In this document: positions 5,098 to 53,372 of the stretch, one piece after another
How the letters are laid out: every line of letters starts with the position of its first letter
Position numbering within the stretch: position 1 is the stretch's first letter
From: Bacteroidia bacterium
GTDB lineage: Bacteria; Bacteroidota; Bacteroidia; UKL13-3
NCBI GenBank assembly: GCA_965279165.1
Contig: OZ257140.1
Span: forward strand, 2,936,167 to 3,000,166
Direction: 5' to 3'
Length of the DNA stretch: 64,000 bases
Program-made: the position numbers and the translations under genes
The notes under the pieces: generated by a model
Database searches by the model: none
What the model was told of the DNA's origin: nothing
What the model saw: the letters and a program-made list of their open reading frames with translations, nothing else

Positions 5098-5611
5098 TAC
5101 TTAATGTTTTAGTTGGTGAGAATGCTGAAAAGGGGACTTCTATTTTTAAGAGGCAAGAGGCAAGAGGCATTAGACAGGAGGCAAGAGTATGTTGCCTTAT
5201 AAATTTTCATACAAATGGAAATGATTCTCCGTATTGAAGTACTAATTGTTTTAGTTACAGAGCCAATTTATTTTCTGACTTTTCAATAATTGTAGCCCTG
5301 AAAGGGCGACATATCCAAGCATCCTGCGAAGCAGGTTGATAACCGATAAAATTATTCATCACAGCCCTGAAAGGGCGACATATCTTTTTCGAAGAGTTAA
5401 GTTTTAGTACCAGATGTTTTGTGGTGCATTACATTGTAGGTAAGCTTTTTTGTTAAAAAGATGACTGACAAGGTAGTTTCTATTGTATCCAATCGCACCA
5501 CTGCACCATTCCCCATTCATAATTCATAATTCATAATTGTATCTCAAACTTCTATTAATCTGTATTATTCTACTTTAATAAACTATCTTTGATTTACAAA
5601 TAAATACCACT

Positions 5612-6244: not shown

Positions 6245-6249
6245 CTACA

Positions 6250-6318
6250 CTTATATCTTATAACTTATATCTTATAACTTATATCTTATAACTTATAACT
6301 TATATCTTAAACTTATCC
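6250..6318. repeat. CTTATATCTTATAA/AACTTAT tandem repeat island between convergent genes
   Basis: (cttatatcttataa)x3 plus partial units fill the whole gap between the stop of 5612-6244 (+) and the stop of 6313-7560 (-). Reverse-orientation relatives (ataagtt/ataagag) are at 50660-50697, directly after the 1606-aa gene stop. Confidence 0.85.
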
Positions 6319-7560
6319 TAAGTTAATTTTCAATCGCTGTCCGCTTTTAACCGTCTTACCTTTTAGGTGATTCCACTTACGGATTTCTTTAACGGTAACA
6401 CCATATTTATCGGCAATTTTTGCAAGGTTATCGCCACGTTTTACTTTGTAAGTTATTTTAGATCCGGATTTGGTTGTTGTAGCGTATTTGCTTCTCGAAT
6501 TATTTAGTGCGATTAATACTGAATCTTGGTTCGACTTAAAGTCGGGATTGGTTTGTAAAGTGGTAAATAATTGTGCTTTGTGGTAAGGTAAATGGATAGT
6601 AACTGCAGTATTCGACATCGGTAACATACCTCTCTTTAAGGCAGGATTATATTGTTTAAGCTCCTCCGGATTCATGGCAAGGGCTTCTGCTAAACTATTT
6701 AAGTTATATCGATTATCAACTAAAATGGTATCCATATAATAGTTGATCTGCACATTTTCGTCGGGATAAATATTGTGCTCCGAAGCATAATTCATTAAGT
6801 AAGCTGCTGCAACAAACGCAGGAACATAACCACGGGTTTCTCTTGGAAGGTATTTTTGAATTGCCCAGAAATTCTTGATTCCTCCGGCTTTGCGAATTGC
6901 TTTATTTACATTTCCCGGTCCACAGTTGTACGAGGCTATTACCAATAACCAGTCGCCATAAATACGATAAGAATTTGCCAGATATTTTATTGCAGCATCA
7001 GTCGATTTTTGAACATCCCTTCTTTCATCATAGGAAGCAGTTGTTTTTAATCCGTACATTCTGCCTGTAGGTGCCATAAACTGCCACATGCCGGCTGCGC
7101 CAACCGGTGATGTTGCCATTGGATTTAAAGCGGATTCAATAACAGCCAGATATTTTAACTCAATCGGTAAACCACTTCTATCGAGTGCTTGTTCAAATGC
7201 TGGAAAATATAATTTAGACCAGGAAAGTACTTTGGCTGATAATTTACGTCTGCGTAAGGTATATAAATCGATATATGGCCTTACAAACTCATTGTACTCT
7301 AAGGGAATTCTCGATTCTAAAATCGAAAGCCGATAAGCATAAACCGAATCTGCATAAATTGGAACATCTTGAACATCAAATCCGTATACATTTAAATCGC
7401 CTGAGGTTACTTGAGGGTATAAACGGCTGTTTAATTTCAGGGTATTGGTATCAATCAACGACAACATTTCTTCATCCGCTACAAATGTGCCTCTAACTTG
7501 GGTAAATCCAAGTTGGGTTAAGGTTAAAAGTATGCTTAAGACGAATGCGTGTTTTCTCAT
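6313..7560 (-). CDS. membrane-bound lytic murein transglycosylase (SLT domain) with C-terminal LysM domain, MltD-like
   Basis: It has a signal peptide and an SLT catalytic core (ESALNPMATSPVGAAGMWQFMAPTGR ... ASYNCGPGNV). The C-terminal LysM is YKVKRGDNLAKIADKYGVTVKEIRKWN. Confidence 0.85.
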   Translation of the reverse strand: MRKHAFVLSILLTLTQLGFTQVRGTFVADEEMLSLIDTNTLKLNSRLYPQVTSGDLNVYGFDVQDVPIYADSVYAYRLSILESRIPLEYNEFVRPYIDLYTLRRRKLSAKVLSWSKLYFPAFEQALDRSGLPIELKYLAVIESALNPMATSPVGAAGMWQFMAPTGRMYGLKTTASYDERRDVQKSTDAAIKYLANSYRIYGDWLLVIASYNCGPGNVNKAIRKAGGIKNFWAIQKYLPRETRGYVPAFVAAAYLMNYASEHNIYPDENVQINYYMDTILVDNRYNLNSLAEALAMNPEELKQYNPALKRGMLPMSNTAVTIHLPYHKAQLFTTLQTNPDFKSNQDSVLIALNNSRSKYATTTKSGSKITYKVKRGDNLAKIADKYGVTVKEIRKWNHLKGKTVKSGQRLKINLG

Positions 7561-16842: not shown

Positions 16843-16887
16843 GGGGTGATGGCTAATGGGTAATGGCTGAAGGGTAATGGCGCATGG
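16843..16887. repeat. GGGTAATGG-type tandem repeat island, left arm of an inverted-repeat pair flanking the four-helix-bundle gene
   Basis: The sequence ggggtgatggctaatgggtaatggctgaagggtaatggcgcatgg begins 7 nt after the acd stop. It is the reverse complement of the CCATTACCC island at 17723-17780. Confidence 0.8.
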
Positions 16888-17331
16888 TCGCATAATAACA
16901 ATCATCATACGAATTCAATAATTGAAGTTAAAAATGTATTCACCGAAAAAGCTTTGAATTATTTCTGTTTATTGTAAAAATTTCCTAAGCATACCAAAAG
17001 AAAGTTTATCAAAGATTTCTAATTGTAGTTTACTCTGCAGATGGATCAAAAGTTGAAAAGTAAATACCTACAATAATTTGGCATTGATAGTATTTACTGC
17101 CATTAACAGGCTTAGTCAAGAACAATGCTATTTACAGCCTAAAATTGATTTTGGTATATTTGCAAATAAACATGTTTCGAATAGGCATTGTGCTTCAACT
17201 CCCTACTATTGCCAATTCTGATACCGTTAAACACTATTTAATTTCTGCATAAAGAAACAAGAATCACAATAGCTTTCTATTAGTAGTTACTTCATTTTTG
17301 GGCTTTATTTGTCTTTCTAACCTATGAAATC

Positions 17332-17688
17332 ATGAGAAATTTCAGAGAACTCAAAATATGGGATAATTCAATGCAGATTATCATTCCTATTTATATAATC
17401 ACCAGCAAATTTCCATTGGAAGAGCGATTTGGATTGACTTCGCAAATGCGAAGAGCGTCTGTTTCAATTGCCTCTAATATTGCAGAAGGTTGCAGCAGAA
17501 ACAGCAACAAAGAATTCAGAAGATTTCTTGAAATATCCTTAGGTTCCGCCTACGAACTCGAAACCCAATCCATTATAGCCGGAGAGCTTGGCTATATATC
17601 CAAAGAACAATTAGCCGGCTTCCTTCTGAATTTTGTTGCGTTACAAAAACAAATCAACACACTAATTAATAAACTAAAAATCGAATGA
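17332..17688 (+). CDS. four-helix-bundle protein (23S rRNA intervening-sequence protein family, TIGR02436-like)
   Basis: 118 aa. The motifs FRELKIWDNSMQI ... RASVSIASNIAEGCSRNSNKEFRRFLEISLGSAYELETQ are characteristic of this family. A paralog is at 51946-52296. Confidence 0.85.
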   Translation: MRNFRELKIWDNSMQIIIPIYIITSKFPLEERFGLTSQMRRASVSIASNIAEGCSRNSNKEFRRFLEISLGSAYELETQSIIAGELGYISKEQLAGFLLNFVALQKQINTLINKLKIE

Positions 17689-17722
17689 CCAATTTCTCTT
17701 CCAAATTTGGAATCTTCGCAGC

Positions 17723-17780
17723 CCCATTACCCATTACCCATCTGCCATTACCTATTACCCATAAGCCATTACCCATCAGC
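17723..17780. repeat. CCATTACCC-type tandem repeat island, right arm of the inverted-repeat pair
   Basis: The sequence cccattacccattacccatctgccattacctattacccataagccattacccatcagc is the reverse complement of the 16843-16887 island. Confidence 0.8.
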
Positions 17781-17876
17781 TATAAGCTACATTCCTTGCT
17801 TAATCCAAATATTTCCCCTAATATTGCATCCCCCTTAAAATAAGAAGGGAGACTTAGGGAAAGGAGGTGTATAAAA

Positions 17877-18074
17877 ATGATATTCGTAAACGTAAAAGAA
17901 AATGAATCTTTAGACAGAGCGCTAAAGAAATTTAAAAAGAAGTTTGAGAAGACCGGAGTTGTAAAAGAACTGCGCGAGCGTCAATCATTCACCAAACCTT
18001 GTATTAAGAAACGACAAGAGAAAATTCATGCATCCTATAAGTTGTTTTTACAACAACAGGAAAGCAATGCTTAA
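17877..18074 (+). CDS. rpsU: 30S ribosomal protein S21
   Basis: 65 aa with VNVKENESLDRALKKFKKKFEKTGVVKELRERQSFTKP, matching the bS21 family. A strong Shine-Dalgarno-like GGAAAGGAGGTG lies 8 nt upstream of the ATG. Confidence 0.9.
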   Translation: MIFVNVKENESLDRALKKFKKKFEKTGVVKELRERQSFTKPCIKKRQEKIHASYKLFLQQQESNA

Positions 18075-20132: not shown

Positions 20133-20207
20133 CGAAATGATAGGACATTGGACTTGGTCATTGGTGCATTACCAATGACCAATCGCCATTGACCAATGAC
20201 TTAAAAA

Positions 20208-20507
20208 GCCGTTGTAGCTCAGTGGTAGAGCATCCGCCGGTTGGCGGAGAAGAGGTTGAGAAGATAGGAAGTGAAGAAATAAGCCGTTGTAGCTCAGTGG
20301 TAGAGCATCCGCCGGTTGGCGGAGAAGAGGTTGAGAAGATAGGAAGTGAAGAAATAAGCCGTTGTAGCTCAGTGGTAGAGCATCCGCCGGTTGGCGGAGA
20401 AGAGGTTGAGAAGATAGGAAGTGAAGAAATAAGCCGTTGTAGCTCAGTGGTAGAGCATCCGCCGGTTGGCGGAGAAGAGGTTGAGAAGATAGGAAGTGAA
20501 GAAATAA
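20208..20507 (+). repeat. tandem array of four identical 75-bp units, each a 3'-truncated tRNA-Thr(GGT) copy with the anticodon arm replaced by a perfect GC hairpin
   Basis: The unit gccgttgtagctcagtggtagagca|tccgccggttggcgga|gaagaggttgagaagataggaagtgaagaaataa starts at 20208, 20283, 20358 and 20433. Its first 25 nt equal the 5' acceptor strand and D-arm of the tRNA at 20508. The next segment is a 6-bp/4-nt hairpin (tccgcc ggtt ggcgga), and the tail is purine-rich. The T-arm and 3' acceptor strand are absent. All three frames are open on both strands, so the ORF-track entries here are artefacts. Confidence 0.85.
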
Positions 20508-20579
<72 letters not shown>

Positions 20580-20837
20580 CAAGTAGTTGGGGAAGAAGGT
20601 CAAGGGTACTTCCGATTAATATCGGAACCGAAAGCTTTCAAGTTCTTTCAACCACAAAGATTTGGAAGGAAAAATAGCAAGTATAGGTGAATAAGGTTGC
20701 TATTTCGGTCAAAAAACTATACAAAGGGTGTAGTTAACGTGAGGAGAGAAGGGTTAATAAAGCAGAAACTAAAATGCAATCGATTAACCAATGAAAAAGG
20801 AAACTCAATATAAATAAAACATAAAAATTAAATCAGT

Positions 20838-22025: not shown

Positions 22026-22088
22026 TCATAGTTTAAGTAGATACTGAATGTTGGGTAATTTGATTATCCAACATTTGGTGTCTCATAA

Positions 22089-22322
22089 ACGAGTGTAGTT
22101 CAAGGGTAGAATAGTCCCGCACGTGCGGGATTGATGGGAGTTCGGTAGAGGAAAAAATTGATGTTGGTTTTAAAAGTTGAATAATGAAAAAGTTAAAACC
22201 AATAAACGAGTGTAGTTCAAGGGTAGAATAGTCCCGCACGTGCGGGATTGATGGGAGTTCGGTAGAGAAAAAAATTGATATTGGTTTTAAAAGTTGAATA
22301 ATGAAAAAGTTAAAACCAATAA
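22089..22322 (+). repeat. two tandem 117-bp units, each a 3'-truncated tRNA-Trp copy with the anticodon arm replaced by a palindromic GC hairpin
   Basis: Units start at 22089 and 22206 and differ at 2 positions. Each is acgagtgtagttcaagggtagaata (= the tRNA-Trp 5' acceptor strand and D-arm), then gtcccgcacgtgcgggat (cccgcacgtgcggg is a perfect palindrome), then tgatgggagttcgg (variable loop and 5' T-stem), then an AT-rich tail containing the 10-bp hairpin ttggttttaa...ttaaaaccaa. The ORF-track entry 22033-22431 (-) is an artefact of this. Confidence 0.85.
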
Positions 22323-22393
22323 ACGAGTGTAGTTCAAGGGTAGAATAGCGGTCTCCAAAACCGTTGATGGGAGTTCGAATCTCTCCACTCGTG
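22323..22393 (+). tRNA. tRNA-Trp (anticodon CCA)
   Basis: Acceptor acgagtg/cactcgt, anticodon stem gcggt/accgt with loop ctCCAaa, and T-arm gggag-ttcgaat-ctctc. It sits between tuf and secE, the conserved position. Confidence 0.85.
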
Positions 22394-22459
22394 CAAAAGT
22401 AACTTGGGAGTTCGAATGGCATCAATAGCAAGGAGTTCGCCCATGTAATTGCAAAAGCA

Positions 22460-38545: not shown

Positions 38546-38578
38546 GTAGGAGGCAGGAGGCAGGAGGCAAGAGGCAGG
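38546..38578. repeat. GGCARGAG purine-rich tandem repeat
   Basis: ggaggcaggaggcaggaggcaagaggcagg starts right after the stop of 36713-38545. A relative, agaggcaagaggcaagaggcattagacaggaggcaagag, is at 5149-5187 after mltG. Confidence 0.8.
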
Positions 38579-38700
38579 TGTGGGATATTTGAATCTGTTT
38601 TGGTATAAAGTACCATGCAAGAATTCAATCGCCGCATGTAAAAAGGTATCGTACCTCCTTGTTTTTATCTTGCGGGATTAAAACATTCATCATTCATCAT

Positions 38701-39084
38701 TCATCCCTCATAAAACTCAATAGGCAAATGATCCGGATCTGCAATAAAGGTAAATCGTTTGCCGGTAGTTTCATCCGTGCGAATTGGTTCAGGTAGGATA
38801 TTCTTTGCTTTTAAATAGTCAATCCAGTTGTCGAGATTGTCAACTGTAAATGCAATATGTCGTAAGCCCATTGCTTCGGGGTAGGAGGGTCGAGCCGGGG
38901 CTGAAGGGAAAGTAAAAAGTTCAAGTCTATAATTTCCATCTAACGAAAGGTCAATTTTATGGCTATTTCGGTCTGCCCGATACGTTTCATTCACCAATTT
39001 AAATCCTAGAATTTCGATATAAAATTTACGGGACAACGCAAGATTGGAACAAATAATGGCAACATGATGGATTCCTTTTAGCAT
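38701..39084 (-). CDS. VOC family protein (glyoxalase/bleomycin resistance/dioxygenase fold)
   Basis: 127 aa; GIHHVAIICSNLALSRKFYIEILGF ... LRHIAFTVDNL are the paired beta-alpha-beta-beta-beta modules typical of VOC proteins. Confidence 0.75.
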   Translation of the reverse strand: MLKGIHHVAIICSNLALSRKFYIEILGFKLVNETYRADRNSHKIDLSLDGNYRLELFTFPSAPARPSYPEAMGLRHIAFTVDNLDNWIDYLKAKNILPEPIRTDETTGKRFTFIADPDHLPIEFYEG

Positions 39085-50661: not shown

Positions 50662-50980
50662 TAGTTATAAGTTATAAGATATAAGAGATAAGAGAGCAAA
50701 GTCTATAAAAGTTTAAGGTTAGGAAAATTTTCTCGAAGCAGGATAACGGGCAGGGGGTGAGCGGCATGTTTGAGCTCCTTTTTATTTGACTTGGATGAAG
50801 TTTTAAAAATATAGCAGCCTCAGGTGGTTACAAATGACTTGAAGCAAGGTGAAAATAAAAAGAGCGAGTAGCGAACACCCGGCCATGTAGTAATGCGAAG
50901 AAAATAATAATTTGAAATACGTGAGCTAGCCGCATTTACTACATGGGGCCCGCATAAAAAAATAAAGAGAAAATTATTGT

Positions 50981-51343
50981 TTAGTGTTTGTGGTCGTCCC
51001 CAAACACATTTAATTTATGTCCTAAGGCATGCGAAAAATCACGAATATCTTCGGCAACTTCTTTGTTATCGGTTGCGCGTTCAAAGGTGTCTGCAAGGGT
51101 TGCTATGGTTTGAAATAGGAACAAATTCATTTCTTCCACATTCATGTCTTTTGTCCATAGGTCGATGCGCAATGCATTTTGTTGCAGCCCATCCCATAAA
51201 GATAAAATTACTGATTTTGCTTCTTGTTTACCATCCACATCTGCATCATCCGCCTCCCATTGAATGGATAACGGTAGATTGTCTTTGTCTAAATGAATAC
51301 TGAAATTTATGTGTGATGATTTTACGATTTCCGGAGTTGACAT
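50981..51343 (-). CDS. possible gliding motility protein GldC (tentative)
   Basis: 120 aa, soluble. The motifs SLWDG ... LRIDLWTKDM ... EEMNLF are as I remember them from the GldC family; this call is not verified. Confidence 0.4.
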   Translation of the reverse strand: MSTPEIVKSSHINFSIHLDKDNLPLSIQWEADDADVDGKQEAKSVILSLWDGLQQNALRIDLWTKDMNVEEMNLFLFQTIATLADTFERATDNKEVAEDIRDFSHALGHKLNVFGDDHKH

Positions 51344-51430
51344 GATGAATTATGAATTATGAATTATGAATTATGAATGATGAATGATGAATGATGAATG
51401 ATGAGTTATGAGTTATGAGTTATGAGTTAT
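51344..51430. repeat. ATGAATT/ATGAATG/ATGAGTT heptamer tandem repeat island
   Basis: It has (atgaatt)x3, (atgaatg)x4 and (atgagtt)x4 in tandem, directly abutting the GldC-like start codon. It is the reverse complement of the CATTCAT islands at 13431-13480 and 38681-38710. Confidence 0.85.
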
Positions 51431-51461
51431 GAGTTATTGGGTATAATTGACTGCAAATATA

Positions 51462-51791
51462 TTATTTAGGAAGGGCATTTTTTAATTCCTTCAGAAAAGC
51501 TTTCAGGTTGGTTAATTTTTCCAGTAAAACTGCCTGTGGTTCAATATGGGGTTGGGTTTTTAAGTATGCTTTTGCGCCTTCTAAGGTCATGCCTTTTTCT
51601 TTAACCAGGTGATGAATGAGTTTGATTATTTGAATATCTTTTTCGGTATATTTTCGTGTACCTTTTTCTGATTTATAAGGTTTAATCTGTTTAAATTCTT
51701 TCTCCCAAAACCGAATCAAAGAAGGAGCTTCGCTTATTAAAGAGGCAACTTCGGAGATGGAGAAGAGGGTTTTGGTTGGTGGATTTTGCAT
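51462..51791 (-). CDS. MerR-family transcriptional regulator
   Basis: 109 aa; the N-terminal HTH FSISEVASLISEAPSLIRFWEKEF is followed by a short helical C-terminus. Confidence 0.7.
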   Translation of the reverse strand: MQNPPTKTLFSISEVASLISEAPSLIRFWEKEFKQIKPYKSEKGTRKYTEKDIQIIKLIHHLVKEKGMTLEGAKAYLKTQPHIEPQAVLLEKLTNLKAFLKELKNALPK

Positions 51792-51945
51792 TTAAAGCTA
51801 CTTTAATTGGTTGAAGGCAATTGGTCAAAAGCGATCGGTCCAAAGCATTCTGTTGAAATTAAATGGTCGAAAGTTATCGATTCAAAGTTATTGGTTAAAA
51901 CTAAATTAGAAAGCGCAATTTGAATAATTGACATGAAAATTTTAT

Positions 51946-52296
51946 TCATAAACTTTTTCTTAAGGCTTGAATTGAAATAATCAGTCTGGATGTTTTCTCA
52001 TAATAAATTACAAATTGCTCCTCATTAATTCTATTCCGTCCTTTCGCAAGATACAAACAACTTAATACCTCAATTCCGAATCGCAAGGCATACCCAAGAA
52101 ATCTTCTAAATTCAGGTGTTGATTGACCTGTTGAACCTTCTGCTATATTCAATGATATGGAATCACTTGCGCGTTGAATTTGAGATGTAAGGATGTAAAG
52201 TTCTTCTTTTGGGAAACTTTGCGTTAAAAAATATATATTATTGGAAAGTTCAATTGCTTCTTTCCAAACCCGTAGATTTTCAAATTTGAATTGCAT
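51946..52296 (-). CDS. four-helix-bundle protein (23S rRNA IVS protein family), second paralog
   Basis: 116 aa; LRVWKEAIELSNNIYFL ... RASDSISLNIAEGSTGQSTPEFRRFLGYALRFGIEV is the same family as 17332-17688. It is flanked by the inverted repeats 51821-51846 and 52375-52400. Confidence 0.85.
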   Translation of the reverse strand: MQFKFENLRVWKEAIELSNNIYFLTQSFPKEELYILTSQIQRASDSISLNIAEGSTGQSTPEFRRFLGYALRFGIEVLSCLYLAKGRNRINEEQFVIYYEKTSRLIISIQALRKSL

Positions 52297-52409
52297 AAAA
52301 TTAGGCTAGTATTACATACAATAATAATAAACATTACATAAATAAGCTTTATTTCATCAATCATTTGACTGATTGCTTTGGACCGATCGCTTTGGACTGA
52401 TTGCTACAT

Positions 52410-53372
52410 CTAGTCAAACGACTGCGCCGGTCTTTCCGCCATTTCTCGCATCGAGGCATAATCGGCTTCCGTTAAATCGTTGAAGAAATAATTGATTGGA
52501 TTGATTTTGTTTTTACCGCGAATAACTTCATAATGTAAATGTGGTGCAGCTGATAATCCCGTATTACCAACAAATCCAAGTAATTGGCCGCGTTTAATGG
52601 TTTGTCCCGGTCTTACTTTTACCCGCGACATATGTGCATATAAAGTTTGGTATCCGAAACCATGGTTAACTACCACATGATTTCCATATCCACGATGTCC
52701 TAATTCTACCAACGCGATTCGGCCATTGCCGGTGGCATAAATTGGAGTGCCGGTTGGTGCCGTAAAATCAATACCGGTATGCATCTTATATGTTTTGTAA
52801 ATAGGATGTAAACGATAGCCGAATCCGGATGCCATATGTTTAAGCTGACGGTTGGTGATGGGTTGGATTGCCGGAATTGCAGCAAGGAAATCGCTTTTGC
52901 GAGCTGCCAACCTTGCCAATTGATCAAAAGAAACGGATTGTAAATTAAGGTCGGAAGTTAATTTATCCATCTTTTTTGATAAATCAATTACAATGTCTGA
53001 ATGATCAAATCCTTTTAGCTTTTCATAATTGTCGTTGATATAAGCTGGTTTAGTGCGTTTAATTGGGTCGGTTTCAAAAATTGCACGGTAAATGGAGGCA
53101 TCTTTATCTTGTAAATCAATTAATTGTCGGTTCATCCGCTCGAGCCGTTGGTTCATTCGTTGGGTTTGCAGTTGATAATCTTCAATTTCCCTTCTTAATA
53201 TTTTTTCTTTGGGAGAGTCGATATAATTATAAGCCAATAAAAGTATTGCAGAACCCGCTACGATTGAAGCGGACAAAAAACCAAACACCCGCAAAATCAC
53301 CACCCTAACGCTTGTGGTCACTTTTTCGAAATCAAGACTATGAGGATTATAAAAGTATTTTATTTTTGCCAT
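52410..53372 (-). CDS. M23 family peptidase with N-terminal TM and coiled-coil (EnvC-like)
   Basis: It has a TM helix, a coiled-coil (LQTQRMNQRLERMNRQLIDLQDK), and the M23 motifs HTGIDF and APHLHYEV. Confidence 0.85.
   Translation of the reverse strand: MAKIKYFYNPHSLDFEKVTTSVRVVILRVFGFLSASIVAGSAILLLAYNYIDSPKEKILRREIEDYQLQTQRMNQRLERMNRQLIDLQDKDASIYRAIFETDPIKRTKPAYINDNYEKLKGFDHSDIVIDLSKKMDKLTSDLNLQSVSFDQLARLAARKSDFLAAIPAIQPITNRQLKHMASGFGYRLHPIYKTYKMHTGIDFTAPTGTPIYATGNGRIALVELGHRGYGNHVVVNHGFGYQTLYAHMSRVKVRPGQTIKRGQLLGFVGNTGLSAAPHLHYEVIRGKNKINPINYFFNDLTEADYASMREMAERPAQSFD

Follow-up and report, generated by a model that had tools for sequence, protein, structure and literature searches.

Why is a small four-helix-bundle (4HB) gene enclosed, on its own, by a pair of inverted repeats, and what kind of element does this arrangement represent? 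The question arises at positions 51805-52405 of a 64,000-nt stretch of Bacteroidia bacterium DNA (assembly GCA_965279165.1, contig OZ257140.1, positions 2,936,167 to 3,000,166 of the forward strand), the whole of which we refer to as the window. A preliminary description of the locus had considered a cassette, or an element resembling the intervening sequences (IVSs) of ribosomal RNA (rRNA), more plausible than coincidence. Our results support that preference on four counts: the unit is inserted relative to related genomes, the bracket of repeats extends across the gene family, the repeat units appear to differ by subfamily, and there is a match to the IVS of Coxiella. We propose, with a probability of about 0.5, that the unit is an IVS-like cassette located outside rRNA, which is transcribed by read-through and has its open reading frame (ORF) looped out by a long imperfect duplex. 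The unit and its two neighbors, in sense-strand order, comprise the following features:

52410-53372, minus strand: M23 peptidase gene, a context gene, the upstream co-oriented neighbor and presumed source of read-through
52364-52405, minus strand: 5′ arm, upstream of the 4HB gene on the sense strand, with about three 14-nt units, GCAATCAGTCCAAA / GCGATCGGTCCAAA / GCAATCAGTCAAA
52297-52363, minus strand: AT-rich spacer of 67 nt from the 5′ arm to the start codon
51946-52296, minus strand: 116-aa 4HB gene, PF05635 (23S_rRNA_IVP) / TIGR02436
51805-51902, minus strand: 3′ array of seven degenerate 14-nt units, reading ...GCTTTGGACCGATC... on the sense strand
51462-51791, minus strand: MerR-family regulator gene, a context gene and the downstream co-oriented neighbor

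Each arm is an array of the same 14-nt (2x7) tandem unit, and the two arrays mirror each other in orientation. The repeat search delimits inverted-repeat arms of 37 nt at 51817-51853 and 52368-52404, which are 86% complementary and separated by 514 nt (inverted repeats were scored without gaps throughout), and the sequence reads as a perfect core of 20 nt at 51828-51847 / 52374-52393. The 19-mer of the preliminary description lies inside this core, its left-arm coordinates being off by about 2 nt. A direct repeat that had been noticed around the right core was found as GACTGATTGC at 52364-52377 and 52392-52405, on either side of the core, and the copies are part of a 14-nt tandem array of 2.8 copies at 52367-52405 according to Tandem Repeats Finder (TRF); the TTGGTC-rich repeats given earlier for 51801-51900 resolve into the seven degenerate 14-nt units of the left stretch, 51805-51902. 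The 5′ arm proper (52368-52404) begins 5 nt past the M23 stop codon, and the 3′ arm proper (51817-51853) ends 25 nt ahead of the MerR start codon. Among the 45 genes of the window, the 4HB gene has a flank-to-flank inverted-repeat score of 22, and the next best gene scores 11. In both the minimum free energy (MFE) and the centroid RNA folds, the arms make up the terminal stem, in this unit as well as in the unit of a paralog at 16844-17797 (z -3.9 and -4.0); failure of the arms to pair in predicted structure had been named as a refutation, and pairing is obtained for both units. The unit contains tandem head-to-tail repeats of a 7-nt or 2x7 unit in a spacer, as heptamer arrays do, and an S23p-family ORF inside terminal inverted repeats able to form a long stem, as IVSs do. 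A search of 51300-52500 against Rfam returned no known RNA family, even at E <= 1.

The only family-supported ORF between the arms is 51946-52296 on the minus strand, in agreement with the earlier statement that the arms enclose solely a 116-aa 4HB gene. The product matches PF05635 with an E value of 7.7e-30 and 103.7 bits (threshold 33.8), and TIGR02436, 'four helix bundle protein', with 94 bits (cut-off 24). A profile of relatives matches PDB entry 2GSC (XCC0516) with an E value of 2e-24, and 2RLD is also related; both crystal structures contain 5 chains, i.e., they represent pentameric family members. By homology, the product may be described as an Avd-like pentameric nucleic-acid-binding scaffold. 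A protein identical to the product is already on record, and PADLOC gave no defense-system match for either paralog (E <= 0.01). The position between an M23 peptidase gene (52410-53372) and a MerR-family gene (51462-51791) is as originally described, and the order on the minus strand is M23 peptidase, 4HB gene, MerR and GldC, with AlaRS divergent.

Is the bracket a feature of this gene family, or merely of a genome rich in repeats? A metagenome scan with an alignment of relatives yielded 80 loci, 74 of them with usable flanks; the loci were retrieved via a few conserved peptide patterns and are taxonomically mostly unassigned, and the control genes derive from greedy ORF maps, not curated annotation. 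The flank inverted repeat beats all 20 shuffles in 56 of the 74 loci. A score of at least 14 is reached by 55% of 58 4HB genes and by 1.1% of 941 other genes in the same loci (Mann-Whitney p = 3e-29), and the five best 'other' genes include the window gene itself plus two divergent PF05635 genes, L111:822-1187 and L141:5097-5459, which carry different repeat units and constitute a blind recovery of family members. In MFE folds computed with 120-nt flanks, at least 15 flank-to-flank base pairs are present in 83% of 99 units (median 36), compared with 30% of 138 control small genes (median 8; p = 5e-20). The median score is 14 for a unit's own arms and 7 for cross-unit pairs. Trinucleotide self-matches peak at periods of 7 (1733) and 14 (1476), against ~400-570 elsewhere, and there is a second class at 8 nt. 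The bracket is present also in distant members on viral contigs (34-48% identity), where the repeat units are quite different (CGTTACA, AGGGTGT, AGGAGGC, AGAAGGC, AGTGGAG, AGGAACT, AGTTGCC and ACGTTCA). The bracket belongs to the gene family, and is not a general trait of the genome's spacers.

These counts bear directly on the possibility that two heptamer arrays have come by chance to occupy neighboring spacers, pointing in opposite directions, in a genome that is rich in such arrays. Many unrelated heptamer arrays do occur in the spacers of the window, and 'empty' inverted heptad pairs exist, both at ~20156-20200 and in Xanthomonas (PMC4692102). Set against this are the specificity of 55% versus 1.1%, the blind recovery of family members and the recurrence of the bracket in ~100 units in unrelated contexts, because of which coincidence is effectively refuted, and the score of the window gene, 22 compared with 11 for the next best. 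We give chance association next to no weight; it was rejected on the family-wide bracket counts and the comparison of folds.

The paralogous unit provides a second independent case within the window, as had been pointed out, and its repeat differs from that of the first, the gene being bracketed by GGGTAAT/CCCATTA heptads:

16844-16887, plus strand: 5′ arm, (GGGTAAT/GGCTAAT)n, beginning 8 nt past the stop codon of an acyl-CoA dehydrogenase gene
17332-17688, plus strand: paralogous 4HB gene, 118 aa, PF05635, 39% identical to the 51946-52296 protein
17723-17797, plus strand: 3′ arm, (CCCATTA/GCCATTA)n, upstream of rpsU

Its arms, 16844-16887 (GGGTAAT)n and 17724-17767 (CCCATTA)n, are 44 nt long and 80% complementary. 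The paralogous gene is located between the acyl-CoA dehydrogenase gene and rpsU (S21, 17877-18074), and a tyrosine recombinase is encoded one gene past S21. We refer to the subfamily of the 51946-52296 gene as HB2 and to that of the paralog as HB1; the alignment of the two proteins that had been suggested at the outset gives the identity of 39% listed above. The HB2-type repeat unit is RGTC[C/G/A]A[C/T] or AAGTCCGR, and that of the nearest HB1 relatives is TTAGCYN/TTGGCYN, the class to which the GGCTAAT/GGGTAAT of the window belongs. It had also been asked whether the inverted-repeat sequence co-varies with protein subfamily. As judged from these sequences, repeat class and protein subfamily seem to go together across hosts, which is suggestive, the HB1 sample being small and the distant members using many other units. 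Different paralogs on one contig carry different units, in L111, in L141 and in the window. In L111, three PF05635 genes stand in a row within 2.3 kb (426-2698; genes at 426-782, 822-1187 and 2345-2698), the last two with their own, distinct mirrored arrays of GAGTATT type and GTCCACA type.

A relation between protein and repeat could also mean that the arrays are reiterated DNA or RNA binding sites for the 4HB pentamer or a partner, with arm pairing as a by-product; variants of this idea are autoregulation, packaging, or a protein that creates or maintains the arrays. The HB2 subfamily retains a conserved core at 7-/8-nt spacing in many hosts at 50-75% protein identity, the nearest HB1 relatives have units of another class (TTAGCYN/GGCTAAT), and the paralogs on single contigs (L111, L141 and the window) differ in their units, all of which speaks for such sites. 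A pentameric assembly, as seen in 2GSC and 2RLD, fits reiterated sites, and the homologous Avd protein binds nucleic acid in diversity-generating retroelements (DGRs). On the other hand, HB1-like units are extremely diverse (CGTTACA, AGGAGGC, AGTGGAG, AGTTGCC, ACGTTCA and others), which would require very rapid changes of specificity; no sequence-specific binding is reported for the PF05635 family; and unrelated heptamer arrays are common in the window with no 4HB gene nearby. We regard binding sites as a possible but doubtful account of the arrays, and return to them below where the composition of the arms is considered.

How did the unit come to lie between M23 and MerR? An M23 protein scan, with one genome per species, retrieved 80 loci from related Bacteroidia. 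About 50 metagenome-assembled genomes (MAGs) of related Bacteroidia retain the order alaS(-)|M23-MerR-GldC, and the M23-MerR spacer in related Bacteroidia is mostly 0-50 nt. A 4HB gene occupies this site only in the window and in two further loci, L006 (61% identical protein) and L200 (69%). In the M23 tree these three are scattered within one clade, whose members L008, L009, L011 and L018 have enlarged spacers with heptad arrays and no 4HB gene; outside this clade the M23-MerR spacers are short and plain. Compared with most relatives, gene and arms together are inserted sequence. The most economical history is a single ancient gain and several subsequent losses, from which array relics remain, and repeated gains at the M23-MerR site are a possible alternative. 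The closest relative, L001, has no 4HB gene; in its M23-MerR spacer, at 6975-7173, it has a 24-nt inverted repeat of 83% around 151 nt, together with a 27-nt tandem repeat. This inverted repeat may be a relic stem left by loss of the 4HB gene; a tblastn search of the spacer for a remnant of that gene was negative.

The three copies at the M23-MerR site look vertically inherited, as suggested by the 4HB protein diverging about as much (61-69% identity) as its M23 neighbor (67-69%). Their arms have diverged beyond recognition: paired with the arms of L006 or L200, those of the window reach a background score of 7-8, compared with 22 when paired with each other, and the own-arm scores of the two orthologs are 11 and 6. 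The outermost units of the window 3′ array are of AACCAAT type, and resemble an (AACCAAT)n array that is present upstream of MerR where relatives have no 4HB gene. Because this array occurs without the gene, gene and arrays are not strictly co-inherited. Independent inheritance of the two had been named as the observation that would speak against a common unit; the outcome is divided, since the bracket tracks the gene family, but the (AACCAAT)n array is also present where the gene is absent.

The genomic context across the family bears on how the units may be expressed. The upstream neighbor is co-oriented in 40/43 units (93%; background 67%, p = 5e-5) and both neighbors are co-oriented in 33/43 (background 42%, p = 5e-6), with median spacers of 71 and 79 nt that are largely filled by the arrays. 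Since the Bacteroidota promoter consensus differs, a sigma-70 scan was replaced by a count of TAnnTTTG, the Bacteroidetes -7 box consensus. The 80 nt upstream contain this box in 10% of 4HB genes versus 34% of genes with a divergent neighbor, which served as a control as they must carry their own promoter. In the window, an exact TAnnTTTG box is absent from the 52297-52363 spacer, where the sequence reads one-mismatch versions only. The 5′ arm is also strand-biased, with positive GC skew (G-rich) in 20/24 HB1-like units, and it is purine-rich in 43/59 HB2 units.

Several units are placed between closely linked genes. Three of them, L206:2330-2950 and L208:2400-2930 (HB2-type) and L162:1440-1915 (HB1-type), separate the homocysteine-binding part of a split methionine synthase (metH) from its remainder. 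The insertion point is the interdomain linker (…PR(K)… / …LSGLEPL…), ahead of the pterin/B12 part. The upstream ORF takes its final codons and its stop codon from the 5′ array in L208 and L162; the 3′ array lies within the first codons of the downstream ORF in L208, and ends just upstream of the start codon in L162. It is a possibility that insertion of a PF05635 unit split the metH gene. For annotation, this means that arms can give stop and start codons to neighboring genes. Taken as a whole, co-orientation, short spacers, the scarcity of the -7 box, the split-metH sites and the strand bias of the arms speak for transcription of the units within host transcription units, in RNA that includes the arms.

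Orientation and site preference are relevant also to explanations at the DNA level. The arms may be the terminal inverted repeats (TIRs) of a mobile element with reiterated subterminal sites, as in MITEs (miniature transposable elements with inverted repeats) and the ends of Tn7 and hAT elements, in which case an RNA stem would be incidental. This would account for a TIR-like bracket around one small gene, for the presence of the family in many unrelated contexts with several copies per contig or window, and for the occurrence of two subfamilies at one site, between the split metH halves; a mobile IVS is, moreover, an earlier idea of Ralph & McClelland (cited in PMC4990558). However, the unit at 51805-52405 has no target-site duplication at its arm boundaries, where the outer sequences …GATGTA and CTTCAA… are not direct repeats, and no transposase or recombinase in or beside it, although an enzyme acting in trans is conceivable. 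The divergence of the three M23-MerR copies, similar to that of their neighbors, suggests vertical descent, same-strain contigs display no presence/absence or orientation polymorphism, and transposition by itself would not be expected to give the orientation bias, although insertions might be filtered by selection. We consider a transposing element improbable.

Inverted repeats around a short segment are likewise the hallmark of invertible DNA, where they serve as crossover sites of a site-specific recombinase in phase variation, and such invertons are common in Bacteroidota. Yet the segment points the same way in the window, L006 and L200, as it does in every same-strain contig retrieved, and 93% of the family is co-oriented with the upstream gene; no recombinase adjoins the unit, and the arms are degenerate arrays with no defined crossover site. 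Neither inversion nor array-length polymorphism was seen in the same-strain contigs compared. We judge an inverton highly improbable. It was rejected on the constant orientation in the three orthologous loci, in the same-strain contigs and in the 40/43 co-oriented units.

For the IVS-like cassette that we favor, the following course of events can be outlined. A promoter-poor PF05635 gene, bracketed by mirrored 14-nt arrays and inserted in the short M23-MerR spacer, would be transcribed through read-through from the upstream M23 gene. In the transcript, the arms would form an imperfect duplex of ~37 bp with the ORF looped out, bringing the M23 stop codon and the MerR start codon to ~30 nt from each other, compared with 618 nt in linear sequence; we propose that the insertion is tolerable for the host operon because the stem restores this proximity. 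By analogy with rRNA IVSs, the duplex may be a substrate of RNase III, cleavage of which would release a 4HB RNA with paired ends, and a perfect stem of at least 20 bp is compatible in length with RNase III substrates. The periodicity of 7, 8 and 14 nt may be a mutational signature, expansion by slippage being the easiest route to lengthen and re-match the stem; slippage-type array expansion is common in these genomes. Likeness of the arms may persist through intramolecular template switching or gene conversion, and not through compensatory selection site by site.

Several observations weigh against this account, in particular against its RNA-level part. Among 2341 aligned arm positions from 65 units, 1857 are Watson-Crick pairs, and on the sense strand there are 89 G·T and 112 A·C combinations, i.e., no excess of wobble pairs. 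Site-wise selection on RNA should give such an excess, and we therefore make no claim of compensatory RNA covariation. The arms are ~80% complementary mostly because both use one repeat family, the mismatches reside mainly at variable positions of the repeat unit, and a mirrored order of variant units is weakly supported (block permutation, mean z 1.1, with ascertainment bias). The arms are one repeat family in mirrored arrangement more than they are exact palindromes. Array homogenization (slippage or template switching) or a sequence-specific ligand accounts for their likeness better than compensatory selection acting site by site. Furthermore, arrays of the type of one arm occur in relatives without the 4HB gene, and cleavage by RNase III cannot be universal, because the arms in L208 and L162 overlap the coding ends of the neighbors, whose stop or start would be lost. 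The lack of a G·U excess and the position of the mismatches count in favor of the arrays as binding sites for the 4HB pentamer; symmetric sites, however, leave the 93% upstream co-orientation and the strand bias of the arms unexplained.

Other repeats in the window place these arrays in context. Dispersed heptad arrays in both orientations are found in distant spacers:

51345-51437, 5515-5538, 6249-6316 and 50663-50693: dispersed heptad arrays, both orientations

The first, (ATGAATT)x13, takes up the MerR-GldC spacer and has its reverse complement, (ATTCATA)x3.4, at a distance of 46 kb; a long distance likewise separates (ACTTATA)x10 from its complement (AGTTATA/TATAAGA). In the spacers 5148-5538 and 38548-38711, non-coding stretches of ~320 and ~105 nt are enclosed by (AAGAGGC/AGGAGGC)n … (CATTCAT)n, and the former spacer also has two copies of CAGCCCTGAAAGGGCGACATATC. 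AGGAGGC and AGAAGGC units bracket PF05635 genes in L181, L183 and L188, and tblastn revealed no 4HB remnant near the solo AAGAGGC/AGGAGGC arrays of the window. The 'empty' hairpin at ~20156-20200 consists of mirrored heptads (TTGGTCA… / …TGACCAA) ~20 nt past tRNA-Gly, with no gene inside; its TTGGTCA resembles the 3′ array of the HB2 unit, and is identical to the cyanobacterial STRR2 unit. Close by, at 20206-20580, four perfect tandem copies of 75 nt stand ahead of tRNA-Thr(GGT) (20508-20580). Each is composed of the 5′ part of the tRNA (acceptor and D arm), followed by a different stem-loop (TCCGCCGGTTGGCGGAG) and then a tail rich in purines, and none is called as a tRNA by Rfam or ARAGORN. 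At 22085-22394, a 117-nt unit (2.3 copies, 98% identity) runs into tRNA-Trp(CCA) at 22323-22394, and looks like a second tandemly duplicated partial tRNA.

What appears to be new here is the link of the PF05635 family to mirrored heptamer arrays outside rRNA; the family, rRNA IVSs and heptamer arrays were already known. The S23p/4HB family, with thousands of copies and solved structures, rRNA IVSs and heptamer repeats have all gone for decades without an assigned function, and in the window locus and ~100 relatives, gene and matched mirrored arrays occur together outside rRNA. The units are found inside host transcription units, essential ones included, namely split metH and probably accB-XCC0516 in Xanthomonas. 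This turns a 'hypothetical protein plus odd repeats' into a testable model of a looped-out, possibly RNase III-processed cassette that is tolerated in operons. A wider generalization is speculative, and on present evidence we think it unlikely: PF05635 genes with mirrored arrays would make up a widespread, undescribed class of mRNA intervening element, of the same type as the 23S rRNA IVS, between co-transcribed genes and in split genes, and their arrays, possibly with the 4HB protein as a binding or propagating factor, would be the source of at least part of the heptamer repeats in Bacteroidota, Cyanobacteria and Xanthomonas.

Compared with known systems, the unit shares a homologous four-helix-bundle fold and a pentameric family with bAvd of DGRs, and HB1-like members give weak matches to PF22296, which is not reported for the HB2 protein at E <= 0.01. 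Neither a reverse transcriptase nor a template/variable repeat was seen beside either 4HB gene, the neighbors being M23, MerR, GldC and AlaRS for the HB2 gene, and acyl-CoA dehydrogenase and S21 (with the recombinase beyond) for the paralog; the repeat search detected no long direct repeat of coding sequence near the unit. REP/REPIN-RAYT systems (repetitive extragenic palindromes with their associated transposases) and MITEs likewise combine a small gene with flanking inverted short repeats that are also dispersed in genome spacers. Their own repeats, however, are single palindromes, whereas those of the window are tandem arrays, next to a protein without a transposase fold and with no target-site duplication. 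The heptads flanking both window 4HB genes differ from those dispersed elsewhere in the window.

Heptamer simple sequence repeat (SSR) arrays, including the cyanobacterial STRR (short tandemly repeated repetitive) sequences, have in common with the unit their period-7 tandems in spacers; in the window, the arrays form a matched mirrored pair around one gene family. Such arrays have been described in Xanthomonas, Nostoc, Beggiatoaceae and Bacteroidetes, in spacers and preferentially between co-oriented genes, as single arrays or convergent inverted pairs, and they are transcribed (PMC4692102, PMC4679880). The GGGAATC arrays of Xanthomonas include 70-75 inverted pairs (PMC4692102), and TAACTGA repeats are found in Beggiatoaceae, Cyanobacteria and Bacteroidetes (PMC4679880). 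Both studies propose roles as G-quadruplexes or translational regulators, and draw no connection to PF05635 genes (PMC4692102, PMC4679880). Our literature search found no link between the PF05635/TIGR02436/S23p family and tandem heptamer arrays, the absence of which is no proof of novelty. In Xanthomonas campestris, an array of GGGAATC type is listed 6 nt past bccP (accB), overlapping the start of XCC0516, with no comment on the gene family (PMC4692102 supplement); XCC0516 is the crystallized PF05635 protein of PDB 2GSC.

The closest relative among known systems is the 23S rRNA IVS, known from Coxiella burnetii, Leptospira, Brucella and Xanthomonas. In Coxiella, an S23p ORF lies within a 28-bp terminal inverted-repeat stem that is cleaved by RNase III in vitro (PMC4990558). 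The 23S rRNA IVS and the window unit have the ORF family PF05635 in common, are similar in size (~430-760 nt compared with ~600 nt), have terminal inverted repeats that form a long stem enclosing the ORF, and are inserted at a tolerated point of a host transcript. They differ in that the arms of the window unit are tandem 7/8/14-nt arrays, and in that the unit lies outside rRNA, between protein-coding genes (or between split-gene halves in L162, L206 and L208); an Rfam gathering scan identified no rRNA in the window, and IVSs are located in helix 25 or 45 of 23S rRNA. While it fails to share the location in 23S rRNA, the unit shares two of the four features that define an IVS, namely the ORF family and the terminal inverted-repeat stem that encloses it.

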